DNA of 64,000 nucleotides, taken from assembly GCA_000002435.2 (NCBI GenBank), contig CM018793.1; one strand, given 5' to 3'. This DNA comes from Giardia intestinalis. Taxonomy: Eukaryota. The stretch's first letter is position 1. Every line of letters starts with the position of its first letter. The position numbers and the translations under genes are program-made. Positions 29,233 through 52,249 of this stretch are shown here, piece after piece. A model generated the notes under the pieces. It saw nothing but the letters and a program-made list of their open reading frames with translations. It was not told where the DNA came from and did no database searches.

Positions 29233-30027
29233 TCATGGCGGCTCCGTGTTTGTTAAGGGATTCGGCTTACTAAGTGACACTAATCTTGCACTAAACCGAT
29301 CTTCATGGCGCTGCATGCTTGACAAAATCTGTTCGGCGTCAATTGTAAGACATCGGTTCAATGGGCTTTCAAGCTTCTCTCTGGAGTACCGCGCGCCTAT
29401 CTCTGAAAGCCTTGTATAACAAGGGCTAGCACTTCTTGCGGAGTCACCTTCTGTGACAGTTTGAGGCCCTGCAATAGGAAACAGTGGGCGACATGTTGCT
29501 AATCCTTTCTGAACTGGGGCCTTTTCATCAAATAGCGATGCTGTCTTCTTTTGTATCGACCTCTGAAACTGAGTTACTTGTGACCCTGGCTTTGGACGCG
29601 CAGGGATCGTAAAGGACTCACGATCGTCGACCTCAACATCCTGAATCTCCCTGCTCTGCCTTTCAATTGACAAGCGGTATTTGGACCATCCATCTGCACT
29701 CTGTCCGCTGGCCCTTGGCGCCCTTTTTGCCCAGTCCTTAACAATAAGGGATTGATTTCGGATGTTTCTTTTGGTTTCCTCTTGACGCATCAGAAAGGCC
29801 AATCTAGACTCTCTGCGCCTCTCTGCCAAGTGCTGTAAATATTGCGCCTCCTCTGGATCAAGGAAAAGACTAGAGTAAAAGGGACGTACATTCCCATCTA
29901 CTATGCGTTTCATTTCGCGGGACAGTGGCTGCACATGGTCTCCCTGAGTGTAATGAGGCTGCATGGCACCACTGACACCGCTAGATGTCAGATCTGTCGC
30001 CTTAAATTGGAGGTTTTTGTTATACAT
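29233..30027 (-). CDS. hypothetical protein (264 aa from the ATG at 30027)
   Basis: The ORF-track start at 30045 is a GTG. The first ATG is at 30025..30027. The gene lies just outside the left inverted-repeat boundary. Confidence 0.45.
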   Translation of the reverse strand: MYNKNLQFKATDLTSSGVSGAMQPHYTQGDHVQPLSREMKRIVDGNVRPFYSSLFLDPEEAQYLQHLAERRRESRLAFLMRQEETKRNIRNQSLIVKDWAKRAPRASGQSADGWSKYRLSIERQSREIQDVEVDDRESFTIPARPKPGSQVTQFQRSIQKKTASLFDEKAPVQKGLATCRPLFPIAGPQTVTEGDSARSASPCYTRLSEIGARYSREKLESPLNRCLTIDAEQILSSMQRHEDRFSARLVSLSKPNPLTNTEPP

Positions 30028-30165
30028 TTTACATCCTGAGTTCACTCCACTAACCAGTCAATTCCAGTGCTACTCCGCTAAGTTTCCTGTCTATAGGCGC
30101 GCTTCTGAATTCATACAAGCAAGCTCCTTTAATCCCTGACCATACCAGGAGACAGAAATAGGTCA

Positions 30166-33828: not shown

Positions 33829-35370
33829 ATGTCTTTAGCCAAACTCGATGATGGGCGTAGCAGTCTTGAAGCTGGTGGTAGGTCGAGCGTAGAAGCCCGT
33901 CTCTTAGATGGAGAGGCTGACCTTGCATGGGCTATCGTGAATGGGCACAAAGAGATAATGAGGGTACTTTCAAAGTACGTTGGCTGGACTGACCTCATTT
34001 GTGCCGCTGCTCTTGGGAGCGTGAACAGGGTCATGGAGCACCTTGATGAGTGTGAAGAAAGGGACGTCAATGGTAGGACAGCCCTTATGTGGGCTGCTAT
34101 GAACGGGCATAAAGAGGTAGTGGAGATGTTAGTGGAGTATGGAAAGAAGATGGTTGATGACCAGGGTCATACTGCTCTGTACTACGCTCTCAAGGGTGGG
34201 TCTCTTGAGATTGCCAAAATACTTATACCTCACGAAAACCCAACCGATGAGAACGGCATCACGGCGCTCATGCGGGCTGCTACCGATAGAGACGCCGAAA
34301 TGGTGGAATTGCTTATACCACTCCAGAAGGGAATGAAGGATAAGGACGACAACACAGCGTTCGTGCATGCCCTCAAAAACAAACATACGGACATCGCTCT
34401 GCTTCTCCGCGGACATGAATCCCCCTCGTGGACTCCCTTGATGTGTGCTGCTTTCATCGGTGATGTCAAAGTAGCCAGAAGATATTTATCTAGCAAAGAT
34501 GAGAAGAATAATGATGGTAACACTGCGTTAGTACTTGCTGCGAGGGCAGGACATAGAGATATCGTAGAGCTTATTGATCCTATTGATGAGAACGGCATCA
34601 CGGCGCTCATGCGAGCTGTTGGTAGAAATGACGTGGAGGCTGTAAAAGCACTCTTACCCATCCAGAGGGGAAGAAAAACATACAAAGAGGTCACAATAAG
34701 CGGATGGTACATGCGCAAAGGAACAGCTCTGATGATGGCTGCGGCACATGGATACGCAGAAATAGTAGAACTGCTAGCAGAGCACGAAAAGGGAGAGAAA
34801 GTAGGCGGTTGGACCGCTCTCATATTCGCGGCACGGTGCAATCGTTCCAATGACCCCCTGGTGGACTATTCTAAGTGCGTTGAGCTCCTGGTAAAGCACG
34901 AGGGCGACATTTCAGGGTGGACGGATCTCATATATGCCGCTTACCGTGGCGATATTGACGCAGTCAGAAACAACCTTCATATGAAGGGAAGCCAGGATGC
35001 TGGTGGGTGGACAGCGCTTATGTATGCAGCAGCACGAGGGCACGAAGCGATTGTAGAGCTGCTCAAGCAAGAAACTCGTATGAAGAATAACGATCATCAG
35101 ACTGCCCTCATGTGGGCAGCACGCAATGATCATCCAGAGTGCGTCAGGCTCCTAATGAAGGACGAAGGCGGCATGCAAACGACCAAGGGCTGGACCGCCC
35201 TTATGAACGCAGCATATAGCAACACCGTGGAGTGTGCAAGGCTTCTTAAGGAAACCGAGAAAGATCTGAAGACAACCTGCAGCTGCCATGGTCACTCGCC
35301 TGGTACCACTGCTCTCGACATCGCTAAGAAGAAGGATCACAAAGAGATAGTAGACATCCTTTCAAGCTGA
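33829..35370 (+). CDS. ankyrin-repeat protein (Giardia protein 21.1 family), the only gene in the loop between the inverted repeats
   Basis: About 14 ankyrin units (G.TALM.AA..GH..IVELL). The ORF-track start at 33751 is a GTG. The ATG at 33829 is preceded by aaaacaaaa. Confidence 0.8.
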   Translation: MSLAKLDDGRSSLEAGGRSSVEARLLDGEADLAWAIVNGHKEIMRVLSKYVGWTDLICAAALGSVNRVMEHLDECEERDVNGRTALMWAAMNGHKEVVEMLVEYGKKMVDDQGHTALYYALKGGSLEIAKILIPHENPTDENGITALMRAATDRDAEMVELLIPLQKGMKDKDDNTAFVHALKNKHTDIALLLRGHESPSWTPLMCAAFIGDVKVARRYLSSKDEKNNDGNTALVLAARAGHRDIVELIDPIDENGITALMRAVGRNDVEAVKALLPIQRGRKTYKEVTISGWYMRKGTALMMAAAHGYAEIVELLAEHEKGEKVGGWTALIFAARCNRSNDPLVDYSKCVELLVKHEGDISGWTDLIYAAYRGDIDAVRNNLHMKGSQDAGGWTALMYAAARGHEAIVELLKQETRMKNNDHQTALMWAARNDHPECVRLLMKDEGGMQTTKGWTALMNAAYSNTVECARLLKETEKDLKTTCSCHGHSPGTTALDIAKKKDHKEIVDILSS

Positions 35371-35462
35371 TCCCAGAGTGAATGACAGACCCTTTTGCTG
35401 CACTCCACGCTAGTTATGGATCGTACATTATCTCTCTTGATGTCTAGTGGTACTCTACGCGT

Positions 35463-38400
35463 TTACTCTCTGTTTCACCGAGGCTGGTTTGCTAGCCGCT
35501 GTCCGAGTAAGTCCATCGCGCGATCCGCCACCTCATCAGATAGGTCCTTCCTTGTTTACCATCCAAAATCCGACATTCGAAATTCAGACTCCGTCCAGCT
35601 CTGATGGGAAAAGAAGAGGTTTAATGTTGTTTGGCTCCCTTTCGTGCTGTTGCTAGTTTTCCACAGCGCCTTCGATGGACTTCTCCCTTCCTTTGCTCAA
35701 CCTCCATGGGGCCGGCTGCTGCCTGGCGCCTGGTGGGTACCGCTGCCCCAGGGCCCTGTCGCAAGTCGTGGCGGTCTGGCCTTGAGGGTGTAGTGCTCCA
35801 CGACGAAGATCGCATGTGTCATGGCCTCGGAATGCCGACTCGGGTTCCTTCTCGCCTCCTCATGGAGTGGACCATCGATCCTACCGTCGGGGTGCGTTCG
35901 CCATGCGTCCTCCTGGATTATAGCGTGTGCCCGTGGACCCTCATGTCGACCCCTGGTTGGCGCGGAGGAGACGCCCGGCTCGCCCTTCTGCTCATGAACC
36001 GCAGTGCACCTGTGGTGCCAGGTGGTCAGCAGCCAGTACACACTCGCAGGTCCACACCCTGTGCAGTGTGCCGGCTCGGCTGGTGTGGTCTGCACCCATC
36101 CGTACCGCAGAGTGTACGTGGAGCCATGAGTCGTTCAGCCGGAGAGGCTGGCCCGGTCACAGCTCTCCGAGAGGCGTTATCTGAAGCATCGGAGCGACCA
36201 GGGCACGTTTCGTGTACGATGCGTTGCTCACCACGAGGCTGTCCCGCTGGCAGCCTGCCCATGTGCCACGTCTCACGTCGAGGTGTCAAGCACCGCGCAG
36301 CTGCTTGTGGTGGACTCCCGACTGCCGCTGTCCTGCGTAGCCAGGAGCTCGGTCCGCTGTTGCTCGAGCCGGGCGTCCAGAGGGCAGGCCTGCCCTCCGA
36401 GGGATCCGTAGGGGTCGCGTGGTGAGTCTATCCAGATCAGCTTGGCTTGGGTGGTGGGCGATTGACACAGTTGCAACCTTTTCGTTACCCTCTCTATCTC
36501 CTTGGAGGCCGTGGGTAGCCGCTCCTCGAGACCGGACACCCAGGAAGGAGCCCTCCTACCCCCTCGGTGCTCTTAAGTTGTCTGTGTTGATCGTCAGTCC
36601 GTGGGTTTGCCAACCTCATTGCCTCGTTGTTGTCGTCGCGCAGGATCAGTACGTCGTCGGCGCAGGCACTGAGGGGGCACCTCCTTCAGCTGCTTAGTGA
36701 GCGCGTTCCGTCCAGCGCAGCATAGGAGCATACCTAGAGGGTCCCTGAGGAACACTGCACGGGACTGAGTCCATGTGTGCTGTGGCCAGAGGAAGGTCTC
36801 GTGTAGCTCCTTAGAGCGAGGGGCACGTTCCCCTGATCGAGACTGTGCAGGACCGGGGCTGCTGTTGAGGGCGCCCTGTAATCGAGCGAGACCGCCTGGC
36901 TTCCTCAGTCTCGTGTGCGCATACGAGCGCATACTATATGTGCATGCAGGCCCCAGTGTCCAGTGCCTGAGACTTCAGATGGCCCGGCAGTATCTGTGAA
37001 GAGCCGTCGTGGTCGCTCCACAGGTTATGCTTGCCTCGTTCTTGGGGATGAGGACCTCCAGTACGCAGATCTAGGCGAGGTCCAGGAGACCTCGAGAACC
37101 CATGGACGGACCCCCGGGTCATCTCGTCGTCAGTTACCTTGGGAGAGATGCCCGTGCTCTCCGCTGGCTGCAGAACAGGGGGCTCGTGTCCCTCCAGGGT
37201 GCAGCCCGTACGCTACCCTGATCCCCTCTGAGGAGTCCGGGTCGAGGGGGCCCGTGGGAGAGGAGCCCCATGGGGCGGCAGCTACTCTTCGCCGGGGGTC
37301 CTTCATGCGCTCGGTGGCCTATTCTTGTTCGGAACCTTCTGGTGGGTGTTGCTCATGTAGCGGTCCACAGTGTGACGAGGTGCATCTCCTCTGCCATCTC
37401 CATCCTTTCGCGCAGTAGCACCTTGCACTTGCTGTCTGTGCCGCAGTACATTTGGACAGCTCTGGCTCCAGTGAGTTTTGTGCAGAGCGGGCAGATGCTC
37501 GTCCTGCTCATGCTTGAGTGACTGTCATCTGGTGCCGCTCAACATGGGGTGTTCTGCTTCGGCTAGATGCTTCCTGGGCGCCGTCCTAGGTTGACGCATT
37601 TAGATCAGCGAACAGGTAGGATTCCCTCGATCTGATGTCAGCCAGCGTGCTCAGAAACGCACCCAATCTCTCAGCTAAGACGTGCATCAGCTCTACACCC
37701 TTTATCAGGTGCTCATGTGTGCACATGAGGTCTCTGCTCTTGTTATGGCGTCGAGACATCTTCTTTGTGAGAGCTGCAGCATCCACAGTGTATCGGTACG
37801 AGTCGTGATCTATGCATCCCTTGGATTTGTGACTGAACCCGGGACAGCTGGTGATAGAGAGTTCCGTTTTTTCTGGGAGCACAAGACACAGAGAGAACGG
37901 ATCTGTTTCCTGCTGCATGGTAGAGGCCACCCAGTTCTATCATGCCCTGGTTATGGTAATGGCGTTCTGGTTTTCATCTTTGCTAATCCTAATCAGATGT
38001 GACTCTGGCGACGAGAACTAAGAGCTGTATCTGAAGACTTCCAAGGAGCTTGAAGGTGCTCCGGTCTAGCGTCGTCTTTACTGGAGGGGATAACAGGCAA
38101 CAGTGGTGGCCCATGTGGAACGCCTGCACTTGGACACCAGGGTTTGGTGTAGTATGATCTGAAATACTAGCCGATCACAAAGGCATGGAAGGGCAACAGG
38201 GGGCCTTCGACTGGGGCATTGCTTGACGAATGAGGCTGCGTAGAGAGGGCCCGAGGCGGGAGAGACGCTTCCAAATGTATCGCTCGAGCTCCTTACCCGT
38301 GGAAAAGCTCTTCAAACGGGAGATGCAGGGATGCCGCTCACAGCCTTTGGCGCCGTGGACAACGTAACGGAGACAAGTCGGGAGGTTCCTAGAGGCGTAG

Positions 38401-38711
38401 TCCCGTCGACGAAGTGGCGCGTTCGTGAGCCGTTTCTGTATTCTTTAAGCGACTCAGTTAGGGAGAGTTTTACTGATAACGTCAGCCATCTTGGGGCCCG
38501 TCACTGCAGCATGCTCTCTTCAGCAGGGAGTTTCACTGAGGCGGTGGGTGTGAGGGCCCCTCCTTTCATGCCTGTGGTACCGCTCATCCTACAAAGGCGC
38601 AGAGGGTCGGGTGCTGGGGTGCCCGCCTTCTTCCGTTTTCGCCAGAGATACGCGGCACCGAAGCATTGAAACTGAGTGAGAGAGGCCGTCCAGCGCGGCG
38701 GTTCGCATGAG
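35463..38711. repeat. right arm of 3,249-bp inverted repeat (mirror of 30166..33414)
   Basis: See left arm. Confidence 0.9.
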
Positions 38712-40115
38712 GAATTTATTCTGACAGCATTGAAATTCTTCTACAGGGGAGACCTCCTCCACTTCCACAGGATGCCCGTGGAGAGCGGCGCAGACGGCCC
38801 CCGCTCTGTCGGCACGTGCGAGCTGGCCCCTTCGACACACACGTTCTGCGCCCTGTACGAGACAGAGGGGGCCTTGCGGTGCGTCTTCACGGCCGTGGAC
38901 AGGGTGCGCCTGTTCCTCTGCATGGCGAGCACGCAGGTGAGTTCCGGCCGTCGTGCTGGGGTCGGGGGGAAGTCGCAGAGGGACCAGGAGGGGAAGCCTC
39001 GAACGGGTTAGCACCGCATAGGACTTCCTTCCATTGCCTAAAACACGCAAGGGTGCACGCGTCCACCCACTGAGCAGGCAGATGAGGCGATGACTGATGG
39101 CAGGGTGGCCAAGACTCACTTCTGCCCTCGGCCGAGCGACACATGAAATGAAGAGCGTTTGCATCTTAAACAGATAGATATTGTGTTTTTGCGAGGCGTC
39201 TTGTCTGGGCGGTTTTGGGTTGGAGGGGCTAGAGTTATTATTTGTGCGAGGGTTGTCATGCTCTAGTGGAAGAAAGAATACAACTCGAGATATGATTGAT
39301 TCTAGAAGAGTCAACCCCAGTGAATACACATCTCCCAAAGCATCAAGAGACGTGGGTGTTACACTTTCTTGTCGGTCAAAGAGGGAACCATTAGTAGAGA
39401 GGAAATCATAGCATCTGAGCGTCGATTCAGGCGCCCTGTACACGAGGGTGCACGTTGTTCCCGTTGAAATGGGGGAGTAGTGATCGGCGGAAAGAACCTC
39501 AGGCTCAGCGTAGTTAGCAGAAGCACTTGGAGAGGAATAAACACAATACTTAGCCATCCCCAGGTCTGCAAGAAAAGCAGAGCCGTTGCCATCCAGAAGA
39601 ATGTTCGACGGCTTGACGTCTCTGTGTGCGATCCCCAGTCTGTGAAGGTTCCGAAGACAAGTAACCACAGAGTGCCAGAAGAACACCATCTGGGACAGTG
39701 TAAAGCTGCTTACTAAGTTGTACGTTCGGAACCTTTCACAGTCGTGTGGATAGAGCGGAGTGACAAGGCAGATTAGCGAAGAGCAGTTCTCGAAATGCTT
39801 CGCAAAGGGTAAGTCTTTCGTTGTATCATCGAGTCGTAATTTGAAGCTCGAGATAAGATCGATTGCAGGATTCTTAAAAGGCTGGCCGCCAGCCGTAACC
39901 TGAGCCAGGTATGCGAGTAAGGTCACTTCACGCAGCACCAGATGGTTGAAAACGCCTGAAATGCCGACAGCCTTGAGAGCAACAGGTTTGCCCGTCTCCT
40001 TATCTATCCCCTTGTAGATCGTGCCGTACGCGCCTGCTCCGAGGTACCCTGTGGGTGACCAGTCGATCGCATACCGCTCGAGGGAAGAGGGGATGGTCGG
40101 CTGTGGCTCGGTCAT
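38589..40115 (-). CDS. Ser/Thr protein kinase (catalytic motifs intact); the 3' end of the ORF is uncertain because it runs through GC-rich low-complexity sequence into the right repeat arm
   Basis: GAGAYGTIYKG, VALKAV, HRDVKPSNILL, DLGMAK, YRAPE. The ORF-track start (40217) is a TTG that reads through the tRNA. The ATG at 40113..40115 gives MTEPQPT. The kinase domain ends near 39300. Confidence 0.6.
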   Translation of the reverse strand: MTEPQPTIPSSLERYAIDWSPTGYLGAGAYGTIYKGIDKETGKPVALKAVGISGVFNHLVLREVTLLAYLAQVTAGGQPFKNPAIDLISSFKLRLDDTTKDLPFAKHFENCSSLICLVTPLYPHDCERFRTYNLVSSFTLSQMVFFWHSVVTCLRNLHRLGIAHRDVKPSNILLDGNGSAFLADLGMAKYCVYSSPSASANYAEPEVLSADHYSPISTGTTCTLVYRAPESTLRCYDFLSTNGSLFDRQESVTPTSLDALGDVYSLGLTLLESIISRVVFFLPLEHDNPRTNNNSSPSNPKPPRQDASQKHNIYLFKMQTLFISCVARPRAEVSLGHPAISHRLICLLSGWTRAPLRVLGNGRKSYAVLTRSRLPLLVPLRLPPDPSTTAGTHLRARHAEEQAHPVHGREDAPQGPLCLVQGAERVCRRGQLARADRAGAVCAALHGHPVEVEEVSPVEEFQCCQNKFLMRTAALDGLSHSVSMLRCRVSLAKTEEGGHPSTRPSAPL

Positions 40116-40130
40116 CAAAACAAGGGAAAG

Positions 40131-40203
40131 TGCCGGGGCCGGGAATCGAACCCGGACCGATCGGACGACAACCGAGCGCGCTAGACCGTTACGCCACCCC
40201 AGC
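40131..40203 (-). tRNA. tRNA-Asp (anticodon GUC), 73 nt
   Basis: I folded it by hand. Acceptor GCUGGGG/CCCCGGC with one G.U pair and discriminator A. U8. D-arm GCGU/GCGC with loop AACGGUCUA (A14, G18 G19, A21). Anticodon stem CUCGG/CCGAU with loop UUGUCGU. Variable loop CGGU. T-arm CCGGG-UUCGAUU-CCCGG. Confidence 0.65.
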
Positions 40204-40217
40204 CAGGGAGGAAACAA

Positions 40218-41285
40218 ATTAAAGATTATATAAAATATTTGGTTTAATAGAAATTATTTGTAATAGAGTATTTGTAATTTTATTGGTTTATCCTAACTTT
40301 TTCTGACAATCGTTCACTCCCTAAAATAGACACCTTTTAGGCACTAGCATCGTAAACGGTGCAGGACATAAGATCTAACATGCGTTGAAAGTTTCATCAC
40401 ACTAAATCTTCATAACCAACAAACTGGACAAAGTTCTTTTTGGAACTATTTAACTATCTGTCCAGTGCCTTAAAAAGATTTACTCTTCATTGCTATTGCC
40501 AAATTCAGGGTAATTCTAGCATTATACTCTGTACAACTCGGTCTCTTGCCAGATAAACATATTTACTATCGGCAATAACTTTGCTAGGTTACATGTAATA
40601 TAGCGAATGTTTATCGTACAATAATTGAAATTAGGCCTGTTGTCCACAAAAGTAATTTATTCTTAAAGTTACTCATTCTCTTCTAATGGAGTACTGTGCA
40701 CACAGTTCCTCTCTACTTATAAAAAGTTGACATTTGGATGCAACAACATCTTAACCAGCCTTGTAGAAAGAATCTCTATGTATGAAGCACTTCTAAGAAA
40801 TGTATTATAGTAACAACTTAAATAACATCAGACCTGTTTTAGTGTTTACCGTTGTGTTAGTCAATATTTTTATAACCATAAACAATTCTAGAGCAATTCT
40901 CCACGACAATATACCGCAGACTTCATAAGTGGTAACTATAAATTTATTCTACAATGGCACTACTACGGTTTTAAAGAAAATTGCTTCCTCATGAAACTTA
41001 CTGACTGGTTAGAAACAAAACTATTTATCATTAATTGATAATCATTAGAACTCCAGGCAGTATCTTTCAAATAACTCCCCGTTGCTTCTAATATATAGTG
41101 AGGGAATATTTACCACTTGTAAGATTATTTGAAAAGTTCATTAAATAGCACTTCCAATATCAGCATCTCTTACATTGAATAAATTTAGATGTTATTTGAA
41201 CAGAAAATTATCTTTAAACTTACTATTAATAGTCATCATATAGTGCTAAAAGCAATGGAGACAAGGATATCTGATAGAGGAGCGT
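40218..41285. other. about 1.07-kb strongly AT-rich, ORF-free island, compositionally anomalous for Giardia
   Basis: By eye about one third G+C, against about half in the flanking genes. No ORF longer than 60 aa. Bounded by the tRNA on one side and a GC-rich retroelement remnant on the other. Confidence 0.6.
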
Positions 41286-41299
41286 CATGTATGAGTTTC

Positions 41300-44200
41300 T
41301 ATATGTGGTGCCGCTGAGGCTTGTCGCGGTGCGGTCCAGAAATCTCACGGGCAAGCCTCGCTCAGTCCCTGACCAGCTCGGAGACGAAGGTTGGCTGCGG
41401 GCGTGCACATCGATCTTTTCGAGGTTTTCTTACGGGCTCGCTGGTCTACTAGGGTGCCTCTCCCTGTTCTCCCTTCACGATTGGCGAAGCTCTGGTCTTT
41501 GTTGTCATTCTCAATACTGTCCATGTAGATCAGCAGCAGCTAACGGGGCCCTCTCCACTGGCTGGGATTCCACTCGGTTGTGTGTCCAGTCTTGCGCCCC
41601 CTTTCGGTCGTTGTCGACAGGTCCCAGGGATGGATTCATTCGGTTGTCAGAAGTAGGATGACAGGAGGCGGTCGCTCTGGGTGGCCAGGCTTTCGGCCCG
41701 GTCGCGTCTGATCAGCTTCGTCAGGTGCTCGTTCGCCTCTGCAGCCATGTGGGCGATGGCGAAGGCAGCCCGGACAGAGAGCTTCTCGACGTCCACGTGG
41801 AGCTCCTCGAGGTGCCTCTTGGACCTGGGGTGGAGGGATCCGTCCGTCTCATAGATGATCGGGAGCGTCCCGTCCCTGTACTTCTTGGCCTTCTCGCTGT
41901 GGTATCCATCTGGCGGGGCTGGATGACACCCACGTCCACTGCCTTGCACTTGTCGACGAGCCAGATGTCGGGCTTCTGGTTCTGGTCGCTGAGGTGGCTG
42001 TGGGTCTTGACTTCCAGCTCCGGTTGAGCTTCCCCGAGACGCGGAGGTACAGGTACGCGACGATCATGTTGTGCCTCGTGGTCGAGGGTCTGCCGTGTGG
42101 CAGCCCGGGCAGGTGCCTCTTGTCTGCGCCATGATCGAGCCATCTCTCTCCTTCAGGGCCCTTTCCTCCTCGGTCAGCACGCCGCCGCTCTGTCCGGAAG
42201 CTGATGTGTGCGCGTGAGGAGGCGGTTGAAGTAGGTCCCCTTCCCCTGCAGTGCCTGGCCGCCCACCGACAGCTCCACCGGGTCCCTGGTCCCCTTGTTG
42301 ACGTCCGGGGAGGCCCATGCCCTCCGCAGCTCGTCGTGGCAGAGCCCCGGCATGAGCAGGCCCAGGCCGCTCTTCTCCTTCGGGTACGCCAGGAAGTCGA
42401 CCAGGCGATCGCAGCTTCTGCTGGTTAGCTTGTTGAAGCCTTGTGCGACGTCTGTCGAGCTCCTCGTAGTCCGCCTTGTCCGATGTCATCTCGACCAGGG
42501 GGGCGTAGTTCACCATCGGGACCACGCAGAGTGACAGCAGGATGAGCTTCTGGTGGGTGGTTATGGGGGCAGTCTCGGCACCTGCGATGGCCTTTGGTGC
42601 GGGACTGGCTGGAGTGGGGGACACCGGGTGGCTGAGGAAGGTCACCTCCTCGCCCGCCATGGTGGACTTGCATTTGTCGCTCCTTATCGTCAGGTCCATA
42701 GCCTGCTGTACTATTGCGCCTGCTGGGTAGGCCTCATCGTGGAGCGCCACGATGTCGTCTGCATAGGCAAGGAAGGCGATGCCTCTCTCCGTGAGGCGTC
42801 TCAGAGGCGCTCGATGGCCATGCAGAAGAGGAGCGTGCTGAGCGGGTCGTCCTGGGGGACGCCGCAGACCCCGCACTTCACGTCCTTGCTGTGCCTCAGG
42901 TCGAGGAAGTTCCTGATGTAGTCGACCAGGACCTTCGGGATGCCCGCCTCGTTCAGGGCTCTGACGACCTCTGCCCTCGGGAGCGAGTTGAAGGCCTTCT
43001 TTGTGTCGAGGGAGACGGCGTGCACCTGTCCTGCTGATGAGCTCGTGGGCCCTCCTCATGCCTACCGCGTATGCGTTCTGCATGAAGGCGATCTGTTCGC
43101 ACGAGAGGTAGTTGGCATGCTTGATCAGCCGCTTCAGCAGGACGCGGTGGAAGATGTTTGTCACCGTCTCGCCATCGCGATCGGACGGTATCCGTCGGAC
43201 TCCTTCGGGATGAGGATCGCCCGGAACTCGAACATGGCCATCACGTCGGACATCGCCTCGGGGTGGGTGGTCAGCTCGTTGTACGCCTGCGTGAGGTACT
43301 TCACGAAGTCGTCGTTCTGCTTCCTCGCTTTGAGCTGGACCGCCCGAGGCCTTCTTGTTGAGGGTCCCAACAGGGCCTTCCTCATTTCTTCTTCGGTTGC
43401 CGGCTCCAGCCCGTTGAGCTCATCGATGGAGGGTAGTCAAGGCTAACGTAGCCTTCGGGGGGACGCACGGGTGTAACGCGCTGAGGGCGGCCTTGGCTTT
43501 CTCCGGCTTGATGTCAACCATGGGCGTATCATCAAGGGCGCGGAGAGCCTTGGCAACTGCTCCGAAGCTCAGCGCGTTACTCACCCTGTTTGCTATCCGG
43601 CGCCTCGCCTTCTCGGGGTCTGGGTCTGCCTTACTCTGGGACTGCTCCGTGGTGTTGCTTGAGTCCTCCAGGCCTCCTACCAGGGCGTTCAGGCCCCTGA
43701 TTGCGGGGAGCGCGACCCCAGTCCCGGGCTGCTCGATGCTCGCGATCATGCGCGCACCCTGGTGGATGAGCATGGCAGCTGTCTGGTTCGGTATGTGGGA
43801 CGGAAGGATCGGTTTGTCGTCGCCCGGTACTCTGTGTCTGTCGTTGTTTGCTTCTCTTAGATGCTCGGTTGGTTGCTTGGCACCCTCGCACGGTAGGCCA
43901 CAGAGCCAGCGTGTGTGTCCTGCCGAGAGGGCAAACGTCTTCGGAGTGGTCTCCCAAGTAGAACCTCACGATTGCTCTCTGGGGCCCGGAGGTACGATCT
44001 TGCGTTCATGATGTGGATCGGGTCTTCGCGGGCTCTCCTTCGCCTCAGATCCAGCTGTGCACACTCCCAGTCTGGGCACACACCCGCAGAACAGCTGAGG
44101 AACGCAATAGCTCCTCCCTTCCACTACTGTGGTCATTATCATATTCCATAGCCAACCCTCGTCTCCGGACATCGCCAAAAATTGAGTGGGAATTTACTCG

Positions 44201-44347
44201 CGAGATTTGCGGACAGCACCCGCAGGCGAGGGCCCCAGCAGCACACCACTGGAAGCAACCGGTGGGTGGAGTAAATGATGAGCGAGGATGCCGTTCAACA
44301 TAGTGACTCGTACGATGGACTTACTCAGACTGCGGCCAGCAAACCAA
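41300..44347 (-). mobile_element. degenerate non-LTR retrotransposon remnant (dead GilD/Genie-like element) with a frame-shifted reverse transcriptase
   Basis: All minus strand. RT motif 1 ILIPKESDGYRPIAM is near 43165..43210. Motif A LDTKKAFNSL is near 42985. Motif B GVPQDDPLSTLLF is near 42869. Motif C FLAYADDIVAL is near 42765, followed by SDKCKS...FLSHP. These lie in different frames with an in-frame stop at about 43158. Confidence 0.6.
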
Positions 44348-44397
44348 CTTCTTTTTGAAGAGAAACGACAGATTTATTCATGAGACTACAGAGCAGT

Positions 44398-45279
44398 CTA
44401 TTGGTCATTGCAACCATTGACACTAGGTGTACTGCCCCTAAGGAGAGACGCTATCTCGAGGTATCCCCTAGAAGTAATCTTGTCAAAGAAATATTCATTA
44501 GACTTGTCTATCAGATGCCCCTCTTTTTCTAATAGAAGCTTTACCACTTCTAAGTGACCCTTTAGCGCTCTATGTTCAAGAGCAGTCATCTCATTCCTAT
44601 CCTTTACACCCCCCTCCAGATCTACTAACAATCTTGCTATTTCCACGTTCCCCATAGAAGCCGCGTTCATAAGCGCAGTCATACCTACCATGTTTTGTGC
44701 ACCACTGTCGTATCTTATTACCAACTTTGCTGTCTCTATGCAACCGCGTGTGGCTGCTCGCATAAGCCTCGTGTCGCCGAATGTATCGGTTGGCTCAAGA
44801 ATATTCACAATAATTTTGTGCCCTGCCTCCTTAGCAATCATCAGGGCCATCTTGCCTTCGCTGTCGATTAAGTTCTCCTCGTACGGAATCAGAACAGAAG
44901 CAGCCTCCGCATGGCCCTCCTGTGCGGCGATCATCAGAGCAGTACGGCTGTTCTTGTTTCTTCTCCCACATTCGTAAGGGGCAAGAATTTCAACTACCTC
45001 AGGGTGGTTGTTGTGTGCGGCGTGCATGAGTGCAGTCCAGCCGTTCTTGTCCTGGAGGCCCCTCTCTTCCTCAACAAGCAACTCGACGGGATCAGCGTGC
45101 CCCTGCTCGTCGCGCTGATCAACACCGAGTCTTTCTTCAAGCAGCATCCGGACGGTCTCTGTGTTATTCGTGTGCGCGGCACGCATCAGCCTGGGCAGCA
45201 AAAGGAGGCTGGACTGAGGGCCAGCCATATTCACTCTGTCATCGAACTGTGCAAGCCTACTCTCCAGTGCCTTAATCAT
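44398..45279 (-). CDS. ankyrin-repeat protein (293 aa), probably the C-terminal part of a disrupted NEK-ankyrin gene
   Basis: About 8 ankyrin units. ATG at 45277..45279 lies immediately downstream of the stop of the kinase-tail fragment. Confidence 0.55.
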   Translation of the reverse strand: MIKALESRLAQFDDRVNMAGPQSSLLLLPRLMRAAHTNNTETVRMLLEERLGVDQRDEQGHADPVELLVEEERGLQDKNGWTALMHAAHNNHPEVVEILAPYECGRRNKNSRTALMIAAQEGHAEAASVLIPYEENLIDSEGKMALMIAKEAGHKIIVNILEPTDTFGDTRLMRAATRGCIETAKLVIRYDSGAQNMVGMTALMNAASMGNVEIARLLVDLEGGVKDRNEMTALEHRALKGHLEVVKLLLEKEGHLIDKSNEYFFDKITSRGYLEIASLLRGSTPSVNGCNDQ

Positions 45280-45281
45280 AG

Positions 45282-46294
45282 CTAGATGTTCCTTACTTTG
45301 GTCTTCAAGTGCGTCGATCTAGTGGATTTAGTCTTAACATCCTCTTCCAGCAGCGCGATCCTGGCGTTAGCGCCATTCAGCGCAGCCTCCAAGGATCCGC
45401 ACTTATACTTCAGCATCACGCACTGACCCCCCAACTCACTAACTGGGATGTCGAATGTAGTGAGCGTCTCATGCAGCTCCCTGACCATCGGCCTCCTCTC
45501 TGGCTCCAGCACGAATATCCTCTCCAGAACACTCTTTATGAATCCATCAGTGAGACCGCTCAGGTCCGGCCTCCACCCGTCACGAAGACCTCTGCCGGCT
45601 CCTTGCCCCCCAAGAAGTCCGGTCTCCTCAGAGTTACTAATTCATAAATGATGACCCCGAGGCTCCATACGTCGGAGGCAGGGCTGGCCTCGTTGTGGAG
45701 GAGCACCTCGGGGGCAACGTATGCCATTATTCCTATGAGAGTGCTCCCGCATCTCAGGGCGTCCTTGCAGAGGCTGAAGTTGGCGATGACGAAGCGCTCT
45801 CCGTCTGCGCTAATAAGGACGTTGGCAGGCCTGAGGTTGCGGTGGACAAACCTCCTAGTATTTGCTCCATTGACACCGTGGAGGTAGGCGAGGGCGGCGG
45901 CAAGCTGCCTCACAATTGAGAGGATCACAGCGATAGGGACGAGGTTCTTCCTTCGCTTGTGCTCGGCGAGGAGGCGCTCAAGGGTCTTGTCGTGCCGGTC
46001 CATGACGACATAGATGAGGCCCTCGTCTTCGACTACTTGGTGGTGCTTGAGGACTCCTGGGTGGGAGAGGGTAAGGATGACGGTCAATCTTGTCTTGATG
46101 GCGTCCAGATCCCCCTTGTCCAGGCCGTCGATGAGGATCTCCTGCACAGCGAGGTCCGGAAAGTCCTTGAGGGAGTAGACTGTCACCATAGTGCTTTCAT
46201 TAAGCACATCACCTAACCGCTCATGAAGCTCCCTAGGGGTGAACGGTAAGACACTGACAGCTGTTGTTGCAGGCTCAGACGAGGAAGTGTCCAT
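45282..46294 (-). pseudogene. NEK-like kinase domain split by a frameshift near 45520..45560 and a stop at 45282 (pseudogene or sequencing error)
   Basis: Fragment 45560..46294 carries HRNLRPANVL, ANF (DFG position), APEV and DVWSLGVIIYEL. Fragment 45282..45512 carries the subdomain XI-like LEPERRPMVRELHE in another frame. Confidence 0.5.
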
Positions 46295-46599
46295 CCTGGT
46301 ATTATTTTGGTAATCTACCGTTTTGGAAACGATCCTTTCCACAGGAGTTTATGTCTACAAGTCTACAGCGGCCCTGTATCTGTGGGGGCTTCTGCATAGG
46401 AGATGAGAAGGCCACCTGCGCGACCGTTTCACCCACCGGCGTTCCAGCGCTGACCGAGGGTGAGAAGGCCTGCTCCCCTGACCTCTGCGGACACGGGTGG
46501 TTGTGTGCCCCACTGACAGCCAGCACTTCACCCTAGTGGCTGACCATCCCTTTGTACAGCTGAAGGGAGACTCTAGTCCCCGTCGGATGCAATCAACAG

Positions 46600-47271
46600 T
46601 TAAGCGCGTTCACTCACAAGCTTCCTGGGCTGCATCTGCAAGTATGGATCTACAATACCCTCACTCTCGAGAAAAGATGCTACCTCGGAGTTATTCCATC
46701 TATTGGCCATATGGATGGCATCTACGCCACTTATGTCCCTCTCCTTCTCCAGTAACAACTTGACACAGTCCAGATGATCATGCCTTGCTGCAAGCACGAG
46801 GGCAGTATAACCTCTGCCCTTCTGCATGCCGCCCTCAATCTTCAGGAGTAGTCTCACGACCTCGGTACGGCCAACAAGTGCCGCCCACATGAGGGCTGTC
46901 CACTCCTCACTGTCCCTCATGCCGCCCTCGCACCTCATCAGCAGCTTCACCGTCTCAACGTTTCCAAGCGCTGCGGCGACCATCAGGGCCGTCCCATCGT
47001 ATATCTCTACTCTCCCTGCCTTGACAAACCTCGCCATCATCCTTGCCTGATAAGGGATGTAGCGCTTCACCGCATCCACGTCGTTCCTCTTAGCTGCCTC
47101 CATAAGTGTGGTGACGCCGTCCTCGTCCACACTGCCTTCATCATCTGTCTGTGGAGACTCGGCGGGGCTGCTCTTACCTGCGCCCTCTTCGCTCGTGTCC
47201 TTCTCTGGCGCGAGGGGCGGGGCGCAGTCGTGCTTCTGAAGGAGTTGACCTGAATCATCCACAGACGACAT
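46600..47271 (-). CDS. ankyrin-repeat protein (21.1-like, about 224 aa); start could alternatively be the ATG at 47343
   Basis: Ankyrin units TALMEAA..NDVDAV.., TALMVAAALGNVETVKLL, TALMWAALVGRTEVVRLL. ATG at 47271 has aataaaa immediately upstream. Confidence 0.6.
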   Translation of the reverse strand: MSSVDDSGQLLQKHDCAPPLAPEKDTSEEGAGKSSPAESPQTDDEGSVDEDGVTTLMEAAKRNDVDAVKRYIPYQARMMARFVKAGRVEIYDGTALMVAAALGNVETVKLLMRCEGGMRDSEEWTALMWAALVGRTEVVRLLLKIEGGMQKGRGYTALVLAARHDHLDCVKLLLEKERDISGVDAIHMANRWNNSEVASFLESEGIVDPYLQMQPRKLVSERA

Positions 47272-47672
47272 TTTTATTCCATGGTCACAAAGGAAACGCG
47301 TGTACTGGTAAACTTGCGATTCACGGTATTGTTTACAGATCATCCAAGATAATTCACTTCACCGGTTATTTCCTGTGCCGTGCCCCTCTGTAGTAACAAG
47401 TTGACTGCTTAGGGGCAATGAACTCTCTGAGGCCTCTCTTCGGCAACCAGGAGCTCCCTGCTCTCGTGGGTGGAACCGACACCAGAACTAGTGCTCGTGG
47501 CGATCCAAGCAAGCCTCACTCATCCGACTGGGTCTACGTCGTCCTGTCCTGCAAGGCGTGCTTGATGGATGAATTGCGGCATCCGATCGTCACTGAGGGG
47601 GTTCCGCGGGCACGCACTGCTCGAGCATGTCTTAGAGCACCGCCTACAAGTCTATATACGGCACCAGTATGC

Positions 47673-47679
47673 GTTTACT
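47673..47679 (-). promoter_or_regulatory. putative poly(A) signal AGTAAAC, 20 nt after the VSP stop
   Basis: Plus-strand gtttact. Typical for VSP genes. Confidence 0.45.
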
Positions 47680-47698
47680 ACCTAAGTCACATCTAAAT

Positions 47699-48292
47699 CT
47701 ACGCTTTGCCCCGGCAGAGGAACCACCAGCAGAGGAAGCCGACGAGGCCCCCGACGACGATGACAGCGGCCACAGCGATGCCAGCTATGGCGCCCGTGGA
47801 AAGGCCGCTCTTGTTGACGCTAGAAGGCACGCACTTTTTATCATCACCTAGAACAAATCCGTCGTTACACTCTGTACACGTGCCGTCGGGACATGACTTG
47901 CAGTTAGGAAGATCGCAGCCAGCGGGCGCGTCCGCGCAAACACGCTCGTTCGCGGTGGGGCCGTACGGGCACTCGTCGTAGCATCCGCCCTTGTAGAGGC
48001 TGTGCGCGCCCGTGCATGCAGTGCACGTCCCTGCCTTATCGCTTGTACCGGCCGTGCACATGCCCGCGTCCGTCTTCGCCTTGCACTCCCCGTTCACCGG
48101 GACCTTGTCCCCTGTGCACTTGGAGCAGAAGGTCTGGCCCCCGATTTCCACGTTGCAGCTGTCGGCGGCGCAGTTTGTCGCGCCGGGGTTTGCGGCGGCG
48201 CACGGCGTTGGGTTTGTCTTTGCTTTACTTGCTGTTTGCGACGCCAAGGCCATTTGCAGGGCCAAGCTTACAAAAATAAGCTTATCGAACAT
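47699..48292 (-). CDS. VSP: variant-specific surface protein (short VSP, 197 aa)
   Basis: Signal peptide, repeated CxxC motifs, GGCY motif, a single C-terminal TM helix and the invariant cytoplasmic tail CRGKA. Confidence 0.85.
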   Translation of the reverse strand: MFDKLIFVSLALQMALASQTASKAKTNPTPCAAANPGATNCAADSCNVEIGGQTFCSKCTGDKVPVNGECKAKTDAGMCTAGTSDKAGTCTACTGAHSLYKGGCYDECPYGPTANERVCADAPAGCDLPNCKSCPDGTCTECNDGFVLGDDKKCVPSSVNKSGLSTGAIAGIAVAAVIVVGGLVGFLCWWFLCRGKA

Positions 48293-49387
48293 TGGGCCAG
48301 CGCTCGGGCAATAGCCATTTAGAAAGCAAGTTTCTTGAGAATTACGCCATGAAATGATGAAGATGGTATGATATTTGTTGTCGATACCAGGAGTGTGGCT
48401 TTCATCGACAAAGGGTGCCTAGATCAGTGTTCAGGAGAATAATAGAGTCACGTGCTGTCATCTACAGTATTTGGTGCAGAGAGGAAAGTGGAGGAGCTCA
48501 GATGAGAGTAAGTATGTAGCTAGAGGTACGCTATTATCAGTGACTGTTTGTTATGAAAGGAATAAGCAGGCCACAGCAGAGGCTTTCCTATCAGTCCTCT
48601 ACATTAGATCCAATGTGTCGCCGGGATCTCTGGGCGGTGCCAGCATCTAGCTGATGCACGCGACCGTTGTTGTTCAGCCGCCTATCTTGCCCACAGCCCC
48701 AGACCTGTCCCTGGGTCTTAAATCATCAGTGGTTTTCCCGCTCCCAGCAGCTCTGATCTGCGGGGGTATTGTCATTAGCTAACGGTAGAGCAAAAGATGT
48801 GTCCCTCTGGGTTATCAGACTCTTATGGCGTCATCTAATTAGCTTCACCTTATGCTTTTTCACCCGACTATCTTATAGATAAGACTCTGGATTAATACCT
48901 TTTGACGTTTAAAGAGTCCCTTGAGACTCCTCTTCGATTTGCGACAGAAGGAGCCGTCATACTATGGAATCCCCTGTCCAGTATCTCCATCTCTTCGTTG
49001 CAGAAGTCCATCTGGCAAAAATAACTTACATTCATCGTCTCTGCTTGTCGACAGGCAAAGTATCTAGCTTCTATTCTGATCATTTGGTGATTAGGCCTGA
49101 TCTGACTATTTAGTATGAGTCCGTTGCAGTCGTGTTGTGATTGAGCCATTTTTATTGCTCTTTTTTGTAGAAATCCCGCGCATTGATAAACAGTATGTAT
49201 TAAGAGTTGAGATGCACTAATGGAGAGACAATTGGAATAGGTCTTTTCCCGCAGGTTGTAGCCTTAAGTTTATGGTCAATAGCTTGCCTTCTCTTCTAGA
49301 CACAGTCAAAGGTTCAACGAAGCTCTACGAAGCGCTGTCTATGAAGAAGACCCGATGTCGCAATATGAACAGCATGCCCCACTTTCA

Positions 49388-52249
49388 CTAGTGGTATGCT
49401 GACAGTAGGATTGATATCTTTGGATTATGTGAGCAGCTCGCAGCCAATCGTATGTCTTCTCGAGAGGGGTGATGTTCCAAGAGAAACATTACCACCTCCG
49501 TACTCCCCTTTGCAGCCGCATATGTTAAACAGGACCAACGCTCCACAACCCCGTTTCTTACTCGTTTGTGATAGATGCTTGATTCGAGCGGATAGAGAAG
49601 CGTCACAATATTGAGGAAATTGTGCTTGCACGCTAGCATGAGCGCAGTCAGCCCCTGAGCGGTCAGCTTGGATTCGCAAGTTGCCAGCTTAGCACAGCAG
49701 CGAAGGTTTCCTCTGCTGCTGGCAACCATGAGCGCTGTCCAGCCGTTGTGCATAGTCTCCCTCGATTCAGAATGTAAAAGAAGCTCGACAATGGCTGAGT
49801 GATTGAAGTATGCGGCAAGCATCAACGCAGTATAGCCGAAGAGCTGCTCGTGGCGCCCGGCCTCGTATCTGGAGAGAATCAGAGCGCATTCTGGAGCATT
49901 ACCGATAGACGCCATCATGAGGGCGGTCACGTTGATCAAGGTGTGCGCATTCCTGTTGCTAGGAAAGTCTTTTAACGTGTAGCATGCCTGTGGAATATTA
50001 TTCTCTAGAGTTGCTAGCTGCTCAACAAGAATGCTGTTATTCATTTGCACTGCTAGGTGCAATGCGGTATAGCGTTCACGATTGGCAGATGCACGGGTTG
50101 CCTCGTGGCTAAGCAGCCCTTTGACAGCTGCTGCTGCATTGTTCCTAACTGCTATCATCAAGGCAGTCTCTCCGCGTGCATCTACCATCAACTTCTCATC
50201 ATTGACAAGCAGCCTAACTAGTTCTACAATATCAGCCTTCGCAGCTATCATGAGCGCCGTGAGGCCATTCCTTTGAGAGATCTGTTTTTCCAGTGGTATA
50301 AGGAGCAGGATAATCTCGACGAAGGCTTGAAACAGAGATCTGAGCTTTCTAATTCTACACTCTACAACGCTGGCATCGTCTTTTATCCTGAGAGCATCTG
50401 GAAATGACACATGCTTTCCACTCAGGTTATCAAGCTGAATCACTGGTACCTTTATGCTCCCGTCAAGCTGGGTTCCGTACGTGCTCTGAGCCCGGTGCTT
50501 AGTAACTTCAGCAGGAAGCTTTTGGGCTGTGACTTGGGTTGTGCGCGGTCGCGCCATGGGAGATGTTTTAGAGCTTCCAGACCGCGAAGTCGCGCACCTT
50601 CCGCTCCTCTTTTTTGGAGAGGAGGATAGCATCGATGGTACGGTAATGCTAGGAGATATTTGCTGGCCTCCTCGTGAGCTGAAGCTGCTTTTTGGTGTTC
50701 CTACACGTGTACTAGCAGATAGAGCCGGCGTCTGTCTTGGATATCGTACCGATGTTATTGGGCGTCTAGACGAAGTGACACGTGGCCTAGAGTAGGCTGA
50801 TTCCTTTTCAGCTGTCTGTGCAAACAGGTCACCCCTACCGCAAGACTTGGTTAGGATACTAATAGACCGTGGAGATCGTGTGTTTCGTGGTGTCACAGAG
50901 CTGTGGGTCAGCGGCACTTCTGCCTCTACTATAAGGTGGCCGCTGTCAGTTGCCAAGCGATCTCTTTCTTGCAGCAGAAGCTTGATAGACTTATGAAGCG
51001 AGATTGCAGATATAACGGCCAAATGCATCGCAGTGACCCCATTCTTTGCCTGCCTCTTTGCTTGTCGTTGGATGTACTTCTCAACGAGTCGTCTCTCACC
51101 AAACGAAGCCGCTAACATCAGCTGCGTATACCCCCGCTCAGTAAGTATCTTCCCTTCAAATGGAATTAATAGCCTGGCTACTTCGCATGAACCCCGAAGA
51201 AGGGCCAGCTCCACTGCAGATTCTTTTGTGTCAGAATAGCTACCTGCTTCCTCATCAATCAGAAGTTTGGCGAGCTCCAAATTTCCATGTTTTATCGCCA
51301 ATTGTAAGGCTGTCTCTCCAGAAGTATTGCGTAATCGGCAAAGGTAGGCTAGTGACGAGCTAAGCGCTTTAGCTTCAAGGCCACTGCACTCCAGAGCGGC
51401 CTTGTGCAGCAAGGAATTTCCGGAGCAATCGGTCTTAACACCAATGATATCGTTGAGAATACTTTTGCCAAAGAGATATACTGAGCTTTTCTGAAGAGAG
51501 GAGGCCGTCAGCTTTGATAAATTGGAGGGGTGATTGAGCCTATTGACGAAATCGATGAACTGCTTTGAAAATCTTCTACTATACTTAGAGACAAACGGGA
51601 TAGTGAAGCATTGTACAGTTTTCATGTACTCAGAAAAATACTGTTTTGGTGGCGCCTGCACGGCTGGCACTTCAACTGTGACGAATAAGTAAAGAGTCTT
51701 CCCTAGTGCTGCCACAAAGTCGCTGGCCCAGGAGCTTTCAGTTGAGTAGGATGCGAGCCTCCTAGATGAGAGCATATGCACCAAATCACACTTTAGAAGA
51801 CCGTGGTCATCAAACCAGAAGCATGACGGATCAAGGTGGGGACGCATCTTGGCTGTGGTCGCAATCTTTACCAGATCCGGTCGGCACAGCTCTACGAAGC
51901 AATCGATCAACTGAGCACATATGACACTTAGCTCTCTTTCGCTATATATTGTGTAGGCCGCTACCGCTTCAAAATAGAGACTGGCCAATGATGTCAAGGG
52001 TGTTCCCCGGGAGAGCGTCAGGAGTGTGTCTGCACTGTCATCATAACTTACATATAGAACACGCCAAAACGAGAAGGAGGGTATCATTGGAAGAAGCCGA
52101 AAAAGGCTAAGAATGGCTTGCTTCTGTGCAGGCGCCACACTGCCGAGACTGATCTCCTGACTGACAAATATCGCGCCGTCCTTGTCTCGACGCAAAATGG
52201 CCCGTTTCGGACCGAGAACTGCTGTTGTCGTGAAGACATAGTCCTCCAT
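49388..52249 (-). CDS. protein 21.1-type ankyrin-repeat protein with a degenerate N-terminal kinase-like domain
   Basis: The C-terminal 600 aa are ankyrin units. The N-terminal 250 aa have a kinase-like but motif-less fold (PDLVK in the HRD position). The ORF-track start (52306) is a TTG. The ATG at 52247..52249 is preceded by ccaaaaatgtg. Confidence 0.7.
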   Translation of the reverse strand: MEDYVFTTTAVLGPKRAILRRDKDGAIFVSQEISLGSVAPAQKQAILSLFRLLPMIPSFSFWRVLYVSYDDSADTLLTLSRGTPLTSLASLYFEAVAAYTIYSERELSVICAQLIDCFVELCRPDLVKIATTAKMRPHLDPSCFWFDDHGLLKCDLVHMLSSRRLASYSTESSWASDFVAALGKTLYLFVTVEVPAVQAPPKQYFSEYMKTVQCFTIPFVSKYSRRFSKQFIDFVNRLNHPSNLSKLTASSLQKSSVYLFGKSILNDIIGVKTDCSGNSLLHKAALECSGLEAKALSSSLAYLCRLRNTSGETALQLAIKHGNLELAKLLIDEEAGSYSDTKESAVELALLRGSCEVARLLIPFEGKILTERGYTQLMLAASFGERRLVEKYIQRQAKRQAKNGVTAMHLAVISAISLHKSIKLLLQERDRLATDSGHLIVEAEVPLTHSSVTPRNTRSPRSISILTKSCGRGDLFAQTAEKESAYSRPRVTSSRRPITSVRYPRQTPALSASTRVGTPKSSFSSRGGQQISPSITVPSMLSSSPKKRSGRCATSRSGSSKTSPMARPRTTQVTAQKLPAEVTKHRAQSTYGTQLDGSIKVPVIQLDNLSGKHVSFPDALRIKDDASVVECRIRKLRSLFQAFVEIILLLIPLEKQISQRNGLTALMIAAKADIVELVRLLVNDEKLMVDARGETALMIAVRNNAAAAVKGLLSHEATRASANRERYTALHLAVQMNNSILVEQLATLENNIPQACYTLKDFPSNRNAHTLINVTALMMASIGNAPECALILSRYEAGRHEQLFGYTALMLAAYFNHSAIVELLLHSESRETMHNGWTALMVASSRGNLRCCAKLATCESKLTAQGLTALMLACKHNFLNIVTLLYPLESSIYHKRVRNGVVERWSCLTYAAAKGSTEVVMFLLEHHPSREDIRLAASCSHNPKISILLSAYH

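Follow-up and report, generated by a model that had tools for sequence, protein, structure and literature searches.

A NEK-ankyrin locus in three reading frames of Giardia intestinalis and its probable identity with the catalogued Nek-GL4 pseudogene GK120

What kind of gene lies at positions 44398..46294 of the Giardia intestinalis window analysed here, a single stretch of 64,000 nucleotides (nt) from contig CM018793.1 (assembly GCA_000002435.2)? On the minus strand of this segment, a kinase piece, a middle piece and an ankyrin open reading frame (ORF) follow one another in three different frames. An earlier note, made from the letters alone, had taken them for parts of one broken NEK-ankyrin gene and had offered two causes, a recent pseudogenisation beside a dead retroelement or two indel sequencing errors. 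The reading frames and Pfam searches confirm the collinear arrangement. To judge from the sequence, a single ancestral NEK-ankyrin gene has been split here by two frame changes. We consider it very probable that this locus is GL50803_137701 (GK120), a member of the Nek-GL4 subfamily that was already catalogued as a pseudogene in 2011. This grade applies to the reading as a whole, namely a catalogued GL4 pseudogene with two one-base deletions that is transcribed and whose lesions were likely inherited or converted. The coordinates of the features are collected in Table 1.

Reading frames and base changes

The kinase piece lies in an open stretch of frame 0 (46348..45563) that is closed by a TGA at 45562-45560. 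Its Pfam Pkinase match (E 3.4e-27) covers only profile positions 28-196 of 263, and the end of the C-lobe is thus missing. The last six residues of the predicted fragment (TGGGRT) are an out-of-frame translation. The middle piece lies in an open stretch of frame 2 (45641..45285) and gave no match in the Pfam search; it consists of kinase subdomain XI plus coiled coil. The earlier note had given this piece as a kinase tail at 45282..45512, but the homology begins at 45581 (DGWRPDLSG...) rather than at the GTG at 45512. The homology ends after 45320, and the frame then runs on to a TAG at 45284-45282. The ankyrin ORF belongs to an open stretch of frame 1 (45318..44401, 306 codons without an internal stop), which ends with a stop codon at 44400-44398 and matches Pfam Ank_2 with an E-value of 2.8e-48. 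From its first ATG (45279) it would encode 293 amino acids (aa). The ORF 44398..45279 therefore stands as proposed, but here too the homology starts elsewhere, at 45318 (IDALEDQ...). The proposed limits of the middle and last pieces differ from the homology limits because they were mechanical ORF limits. The proposed number of eight ankyrin repeats depends on the criterion: six clear TALM-type repeats are found by a regular expression, seven are given by Pfam in a published table (discussed below), and eight to nine are counted by eye when degenerate and capping repeats are taken in.

The breaks fall where a continuous NEK-ankyrin protein would be expected. In an alignment with intact paralogues, the three pieces join end to end and no residue is lost, and the addition of one base at each break gives an ORF of 632 codons with a terminal stop only. 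Intact paralogues, such as P0002 (697 aa, isolate WB) and P0001 (865 aa, isolate DH), run unbroken across both break points. An N-terminal kinase domain followed by ankyrin repeats is found in 133 of the 198 Giardia Neks (PMC3218828), and the architecture is common in this organism, as the earlier note had held.

To place the lesions at the base level, we aligned the window DNA to two DH paralogues, the loci L003 (encoding the intact 865-aa P0001) and L004 (encoding P0037). Each break corresponds to a one-base deletion. Lesion 1 falls in the Val-Asp pair of ...EVFVDGWRPDL..., and lesion 2 falls in the Lys/Arg codon of ...KSTKIDALEDQ.... In this alignment neither lesion lies in a homopolymer. 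The run nearest to lesion 1 is a G6 at 45611-45606, to which the check for homopolymer errors suggested in the earlier note would have led; it is the same in the window and in the intact L003, and it is different in L004, which is broken. Lesion 1 would shift the frame six codons ahead of the TGA, and subdomain XI and everything downstream of it would be lost from the product of the normal ATG. Lesion 2 would part the coiled coil from the ankyrin repeats.

Table 1. Features of the GK120 locus and its immediate flanks (window coordinates; lesions are placed relative to DH paralogues).
Feature	Position	Strand	Remarks
5' flank/promoter region of the duplicated Nek-GL4 unit	46295..46531	-	translation of 46302..46526
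Kinase fragment	45560..46294	-	frame 0; ATG 46294; 244 aa; identical to XP_001708881.1 'Kinase, NEK'
Lesion 1, one-base deletion	between 45582 and 45581	-	window GT-GAC vs GTCGAT in paralogues
Kinase subdomain XI (DGWRPDLSG...EPERRP) and first half of coiled coil	45320..45581	-	frame 2
Lesion 2, one-base deletion	between 45320 and 45319	-	window ACTA-GATC vs ACTAAGATC or ACTAGGATC in paralogues
Second half of coiled coil and TALM-type ankyrin repeats	44398..45318	-	frame 1; from alignment to paralogues
Degenerate reverse-transcriptase remnant	41721..44178	-	62% GC; about 200 nt downstream of the pseudogene stop, same orientation

Catalogue entry, annotation and relatives

The kinome of Manning et al. 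(2011; Genome Biol 12:R66, Additional file 1; PMC3218828), which was built on the Sanger-based GiardiaDB release 2.3, contains a row G095 / GL50803_137701 / GK120 / Other/Nek/Nek-GL4. Its entries are orthology 'C', 'Pseudogene', 'N - multiple GiardiaDB', 1 coil and 7 ankyrin repeats, with the note 'Chromosomal neighbor of GK054'. The printed GK120 string includes AEVFVxDGWRPDLSG and KSTRxIDALEDQ, where x denotes a frame change. Its printed segments of 252, 88 and 57 aa match frames 0, 2 and 1 of the window exactly, and the x marks coincide with lesions 1 and 2. GK120 is thus the same locus, with no sequence difference. In the same study, 30 fragmentary gene predictions were lengthened into pseudogene sequences, and 29 of the 30 kinase pseudogenes of WB belong to GL4 (PMC3218828). 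As a discovery the locus is therefore minor, since its position, its pseudogene status and both frameshift positions have been public since 2011, in a family with about 30 such pseudogenes. Beyond the GK120 entry, we add the base-level positions of the deletions, the absence of a protein from the 2020 annotation, and the link to later expression and chromatin immunoprecipitation (ChIP) reports.

The neighbours of the locus in the window are exact entries of chromosome 5 of WB clone C6 (ATCC 50803), in order (KAE8305385, 388, 391-397 and 399-401). The 2007 annotation has the 244-aa fragment only at this locus, and in the collection that we searched this protein survives only via EukProt. In the 2020 annotation, KAE8305393 (38589..40115) and KAE8305394 (46600..47271) flank the locus consecutively, so that this annotation holds no protein at either the locus or the adjacent retroelement remnant. 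All of the tested proteins that are present in both annotations are identical. Membership of Nek-GL4 is indicated by 82% identity to GK117, itself a Nek-GL4 kinase, and by 64-77% identity to the other best matches. The collinear Pkinase and Ank_2 matches, the TALM motifs and the alignment to full-length paralogues give the GL4 architecture. Relative to intact homologues, the frame is disrupted by two one-base deletions, the first of which leads to a premature TGA, as expected for a pseudogene.

The closest relative of the kinase part is GK117 / GL50803_112553 (P0028), a kinase-only 'dead Nek' of 376 aa from WB chromosome 5 that shares the 82% identity given above. The N-terminal 60 residues of the two proteins are almost identical, and both carry the same K72Q replacement (LAVQ). 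In contrast to GK120, GK117 keeps HCD and DFG and is unbroken at both lesion sites; it stops just inside the first ankyrin repeat (...PRLMRAAHK*, the asterisk here and below denoting a stop). The intact 'Kinase, NEK' P0002, also from WB chromosome 5 and with a 698-aa counterpart in isolate P15 (P0006), shows the same kinase-coil-ankyrin layout at full length. Its identity to the fused GK120 protein is 64% at 100% query coverage in BLASTP and 70% in a MAFFT alignment, and the C-terminal ends of the two are much alike (...EKEGHLIDKS...CNDH). Unlike GK120, P0002 is read in a single frame, has one additional ankyrin repeat and the whole of repeat 2, and keeps D166 and D184 (HCD, DFG).

A homology search with the fused protein returned only paralogues with at most 82% identity; it missed the 244-aa fragment (P0135), which is a cluster representative in the same collection, and absence from this search is accordingly not evidence. 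With the ankyrin frame, nothing above 57% identity over the full length was obtained. The DH contigs that carry P0001 and P0037 were considered as sources of orthologues and rejected. These genes are paralogues with 83-84% nucleotide identity and are not syntenic, and the coverage of the window by DH contigs breaks off at about 30 kb and about 49.4 kb. At the contig end, L004 (791-2777 of AHGT01000024.1, isolate DH) holds a fragmented NEK-ankyrin copy of its own, in which a 366-aa kinase precedes four short ankyrin ORFs. These ORFs are nearer to window positions 34513..35360 (83-88% identity) than to the pseudogene.

Decay of the copy and origin of its lesions

The copy is also degenerate outside its two frame changes. 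In the alignment, its catalytic motifs read LAVQ, HRN and NFS instead of the LAVK, HRD/HCD and DFG of paralogues, and the glycine loop (LNESTMVTV) is degenerate too. K72, D166 and D184 are all lost (K72Q, D166N, D184N), which is not the pattern of a catalytically competent kinase. Because these three residues are lost, the GK120 copy would be catalytically dead even after repair of its frame. Such a loss is not diagnostic by itself, since 71% of the WB Neks are without at least one of these residues (PMC3218828). Compared with intact paralogues, there are two in-frame deletions, one removing 11 residues from ankyrin repeat 2 (intact relatives have AQGMTALMHAA there) and one removing a whole 33-residue repeat. 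The 11-residue deletion is common to GK101, GK102, GK119, GK140 and the DH proteins P0036 and P0037, all of which are frameshifted or truncated; among the sequences examined, it was seen only in broken copies. The 3' end reads CNDQ*TAL*SHE* in the window and CNDHQAAPRSHE* in paralogues.

These features bear on the second cause offered by the earlier note, according to which the gene would be intact in the organism and both frame changes would be indel errors of sequencing or assembly. Both changes are one-base deletions, which are the commonest kind of error, the remainder of the ORF is clean, and the PacBio draft of the 2020 assembly did contain indel errors that were fixed with Illumina reads (85 indels in 38 genes; PMC7000408). 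However, neither site is a homopolymer, and the same frameshifts are present in the Sanger-based sequence used by Manning et al. (PMC3218828). Even after Illumina polishing, the 2020 annotation shows no protein here, and exact look-ups of three conceptually repaired products found none of them in the protein collection. A mere error would also leave unexplained why this copy carries the three catalytic replacements together with an in-frame deletion shared with other dead copies, in a family with many such pseudogenes (PMC3218828). We therefore regard sequencing error as extremely unlikely and favour pseudogenisation of the two proposed causes. Contig look-ups by exact protein, made with the 293-aa ORF, the 244-aa fragment, a 260-aa GTG-start version, a 76-aa ORF and internal-Met versions, gave no match; the same look-ups were blank for the neighbouring VSP and ankyrin genes, and the WB chromosome seemingly lies outside the gene-position index. 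The Logan contigs with a 100% match to the window derive from the WB-like read sets SRR10368400 and SRR3596239 and end at about 50.4 kb.

If the deletions are real, where did they arise? In the strings of Manning et al., a frame-change mark at the place of lesion 1 is also printed for GK103 (AEVFVxDGW) and GK129 (AEVFxDGW), and one at the place of lesion 2 is printed for GK101 (KSTxIDALEDQ). GK129 and the present copy also share an unusual ...EPERRPMVRELHETL... variant. Other frame-change positions recur in further GL4 pseudogenes (HPGxVLKYH, GVDAxLKRGL and ELGxGQCVML). GK103, GK129, GK101, GK102, GK119 and GK140 belong to the same Nek-GL4 subfamily but are other loci, with other combinations of lesions and with in-frame stops. 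The simplest reading of the recurring frame changes would be that dead GL4 copies duplicate or swap segments by gene conversion. Because the lesion positions and the 11-residue deletion recur elsewhere, inheritance or gene conversion is at least as likely as an event on site, and the pattern suggests that the lesions were probably acquired from other dead GL4 copies. Of a recent pseudogenisation beside the retroelement, the recency agrees with the slight decay of the copy, whereas an origin on site is not supported. We see no causal link between the lesions and the retroelement.

A conserved recoding site would also give recurring frameshifts at the same places, as are printed for several paralogous 'pseudogenes', and both shifts in GK120 have the same direction. 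Programmed -1 ribosomal frameshifting or transcriptional slippage might then restore the full-length protein at both sites. However, there is no X XXY YYZ slippery heptamer at either point (TTC GT|G ACG and ACT A|GA TCG). Only one candidate slippery run exists, G GGG GGC (45611-45606); it is 25 nt upstream of lesion 1, and a slip there would swap the conserved KEPAEVFVD for unrelated residues. Moreover, in most paralogues a single frame encodes this peptide, and other pseudogenes of the family carry in-frame stops and different frameshifts. The probability of recoding is, in our estimate, practically negligible.

The recurrence of lesion positions among GL4 pseudogenes that have an active encystation promoter is the only mildly novel angle of this locus. 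It offers a cheap and testable handle on the turnover of the family, by duplication of dead copies or by gene conversion. A broader conjecture, which we consider unlikely, is that the GL4 'pseudogenes', rather than having died independently and recently, form a lineage of already-dead copies that have been repeatedly duplicated and gene-converted while keeping a live, Myb2-driven, encystation-induced promoter. The recurrence of frameshifts and of the 11-residue deletion at separate loci would then follow from this history. If this were true, dead GL4 copies could be a donor reservoir that diversifies active GL4 Neks, or they could be transcribed regulatory RNAs or truncated pseudokinase decoys in encystation.

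Expression and surroundings of the locus

When translated conceptually, the 5' flank differs little from the one that Manning et al. print for GK126 / GL50803_98653, and it is similar to the extended N-terminus of P0003. The flank contains one Myb2-type hexamer (CTACAG, matching CWACAG on the plus strand) at 46363-46368, about 70 nt upstream of the ATG. We rejected this motif as proof of regulation, because the hexamer is no commoner than chance in the window (65 found, 72 expected). In a Myb2 ChIP-seq study, GL50803_137701 showed a 6.2-fold enrichment with a promoter motif present and was the top 'signalling' match, and the GL4 pseudogenes 114495 and 42657 sit beside it in the list (PMC9547401). 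In their discussion, the authors refer to 'GL50803_133701' as a Nek with confirmed dependence on Myb2 (PMC9547401); this number may be a misprint for 137701. In another study, 137701 is among the encystation-up-regulated genes that go strongly down when encysting cells meet Caco-2 cells, again with the GL4 pseudogene 114495 alongside (PMC9094438). The published encystation induction and Myb2 binding of the 5' fragment suggest that the promoter would still work. Because the 5' fragment is reported to be induced and bound in this way, the locus is most likely a pseudogene that is still transcribed from a surviving encystation promoter. The only straightforward product would be the 244-aa truncated pseudokinase, which is probably without function.

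Several points weigh against the reading of the locus as a transcribed GL4 pseudogene with inherited or converted lesions. The lesions were read from the assembled sequence and published protein strings rather than from raw reads, and look-ups in Logan, ENA and NCBI found no independent contig covering the locus. The sharing of lesions was judged from approximate x marks in published protein strings and not from DNA, and the agreement of the 2007 and 2020 assemblies was inferred from annotation numbering instead of a DNA comparison. The Manning table has no SAGE (serial analysis of gene expression) value for GK120 (PMC3218828), and reads or primers matching paralogues could have raised the reported expression; given the near identity of its 5' flank with that of GK126, such reads and primers may not be specific to the locus. 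GL4 copies may accordingly share ChIP or RNA signals at the promoter. The decay itself is also modest. Besides the two shifts, nonsense codons occur only as a pair of TAGs within the last nine codons. The Ka/Ks ratios against the DH paralogues are 0.33-0.37, compared with 0.38 between the intact and the broken DH copy, from which most of the divergence is estimated to have built up under constraint. As a rough estimate, neutral decay would be bounded to a few per cent divergence, with no nonsense codon in 632 codons. Because Ka/Ks is unremarkable and nonsense codons are few, decay since the loss of constraint appears slight, and some constraint on the pieces is possible.

An alternative reading is that the locus now works as two genes, an encystation-induced 244-aa truncated pseudokinase and a stand-alone 293-aa ankyrin protein of the Protein 21.1 / ARP-1 type. 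The reported transcription, encystation induction and Myb2 binding of the 5' fragment (PMC9094438, PMC9547401) fit the first of these. Annotated kinase-only GL4 members also exist, such as the 376-aa GK117 / GL50803_112553. Stand-alone ankyrin proteins are plentiful in Giardia, with 267 ARP-1 genes (PMC7000408), and the ankyrin frame is open for 306 codons with 65% A/T in the 20 bases before its ATG. The earlier note had supposed that the ankyrin part keeps its own ATG and A/T context and could be expressed alone, but neither feature bears this out. ATG 45279 is a conserved internal Met of the coiled coil (...EHLAMIKALE... in paralogues), and the 60 nt upstream of it are conserved coding sequence, not a new promoter. 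The 65% A/T is uninformative, since real starts in the window range from 30 to 80% and the value is about 1.4 standard deviations above background. The 293-aa ORF was found in none of the protein collections queried, including both WB annotations, and the sequence offers no positive evidence that it is expressed on its own. The 244-aa product would lack subdomain XI and the three catalytic residues, and the missing SAGE value and the possible contribution of paralogue reads count against this arrangement as well. We regard two separate genes as very unlikely.

The identity of the locus has a practical consequence for the literature. Later papers list GL50803_137701 as an ordinary 'Kinase, NEK', whereas the annotated product is in fact a 244-aa truncated and catalytically dead fragment. 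In addition, the near-identical 5' flank in another GL4 copy means that mapping for GL50803_137701 may be ambiguous.

The dead retroelement next to the locus is real. Its RVT_1 match is split over two frames at about 42800, with profile positions 69-136 at 42801..43025 (E 1.5e-7) and positions 139-204 in the other frame, within the ORF 42064..43164. On the other side, the ankyrin gene KAE8305394 (46600..47271) adjoins the 5' flank of the pseudogene, and a short VSP of 197 aa with a canonical CRGKA tail (KAE8305395.1; 47699-48292, minus strand) lies two genes upstream. Downstream of the remnant, at 38589-40115 on the minus strand, lies a 'Kinase' of 508 aa (KAE8305393.1 / XP_001708886.1). Its residues 1-312 equal the CDK GK054 / GL50803_14578 of Manning et al. 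with one difference, and it diverges fully from GK054 from about residue 324 (about 39146), where the GC content jumps from 0.50 to 0.63. KAE8305393.1 appears to be a truncated duplicate whose reading frame continues into unrelated, GC-rich sequence.

Further along, 30157-33414 and 35463-38720 form a perfect inverted repeat with arms of 3,258 nt (100% complementary) and a spacer of 2,048 nt, which holds the ankyrin gene 33829..35370 (KAE8305392.1); the DH contigs end at the left edge of this repeat, at about 30 kb. The region of about 30000-49400 is a repeat-rich island between conserved blocks and contains the inverted repeat, the truncated kinase, the reverse-transcriptase remnant, the NEK pseudogene, the small ankyrin gene and the short VSP. 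The DH (A2) contigs break off at the orthologues of 29233..30045 and 49388..52249, and the Logan contigs do so at about 50.4 kb and about 55.5 kb. Outside the island, a 211-aa histidine phosphatase (21802-22437, minus strand) is present twice in identical form on the same chromosome, as KAE8305362.1 and KAE8305386.1; these copies are 24 accession numbers apart and indicate a segmental duplication.

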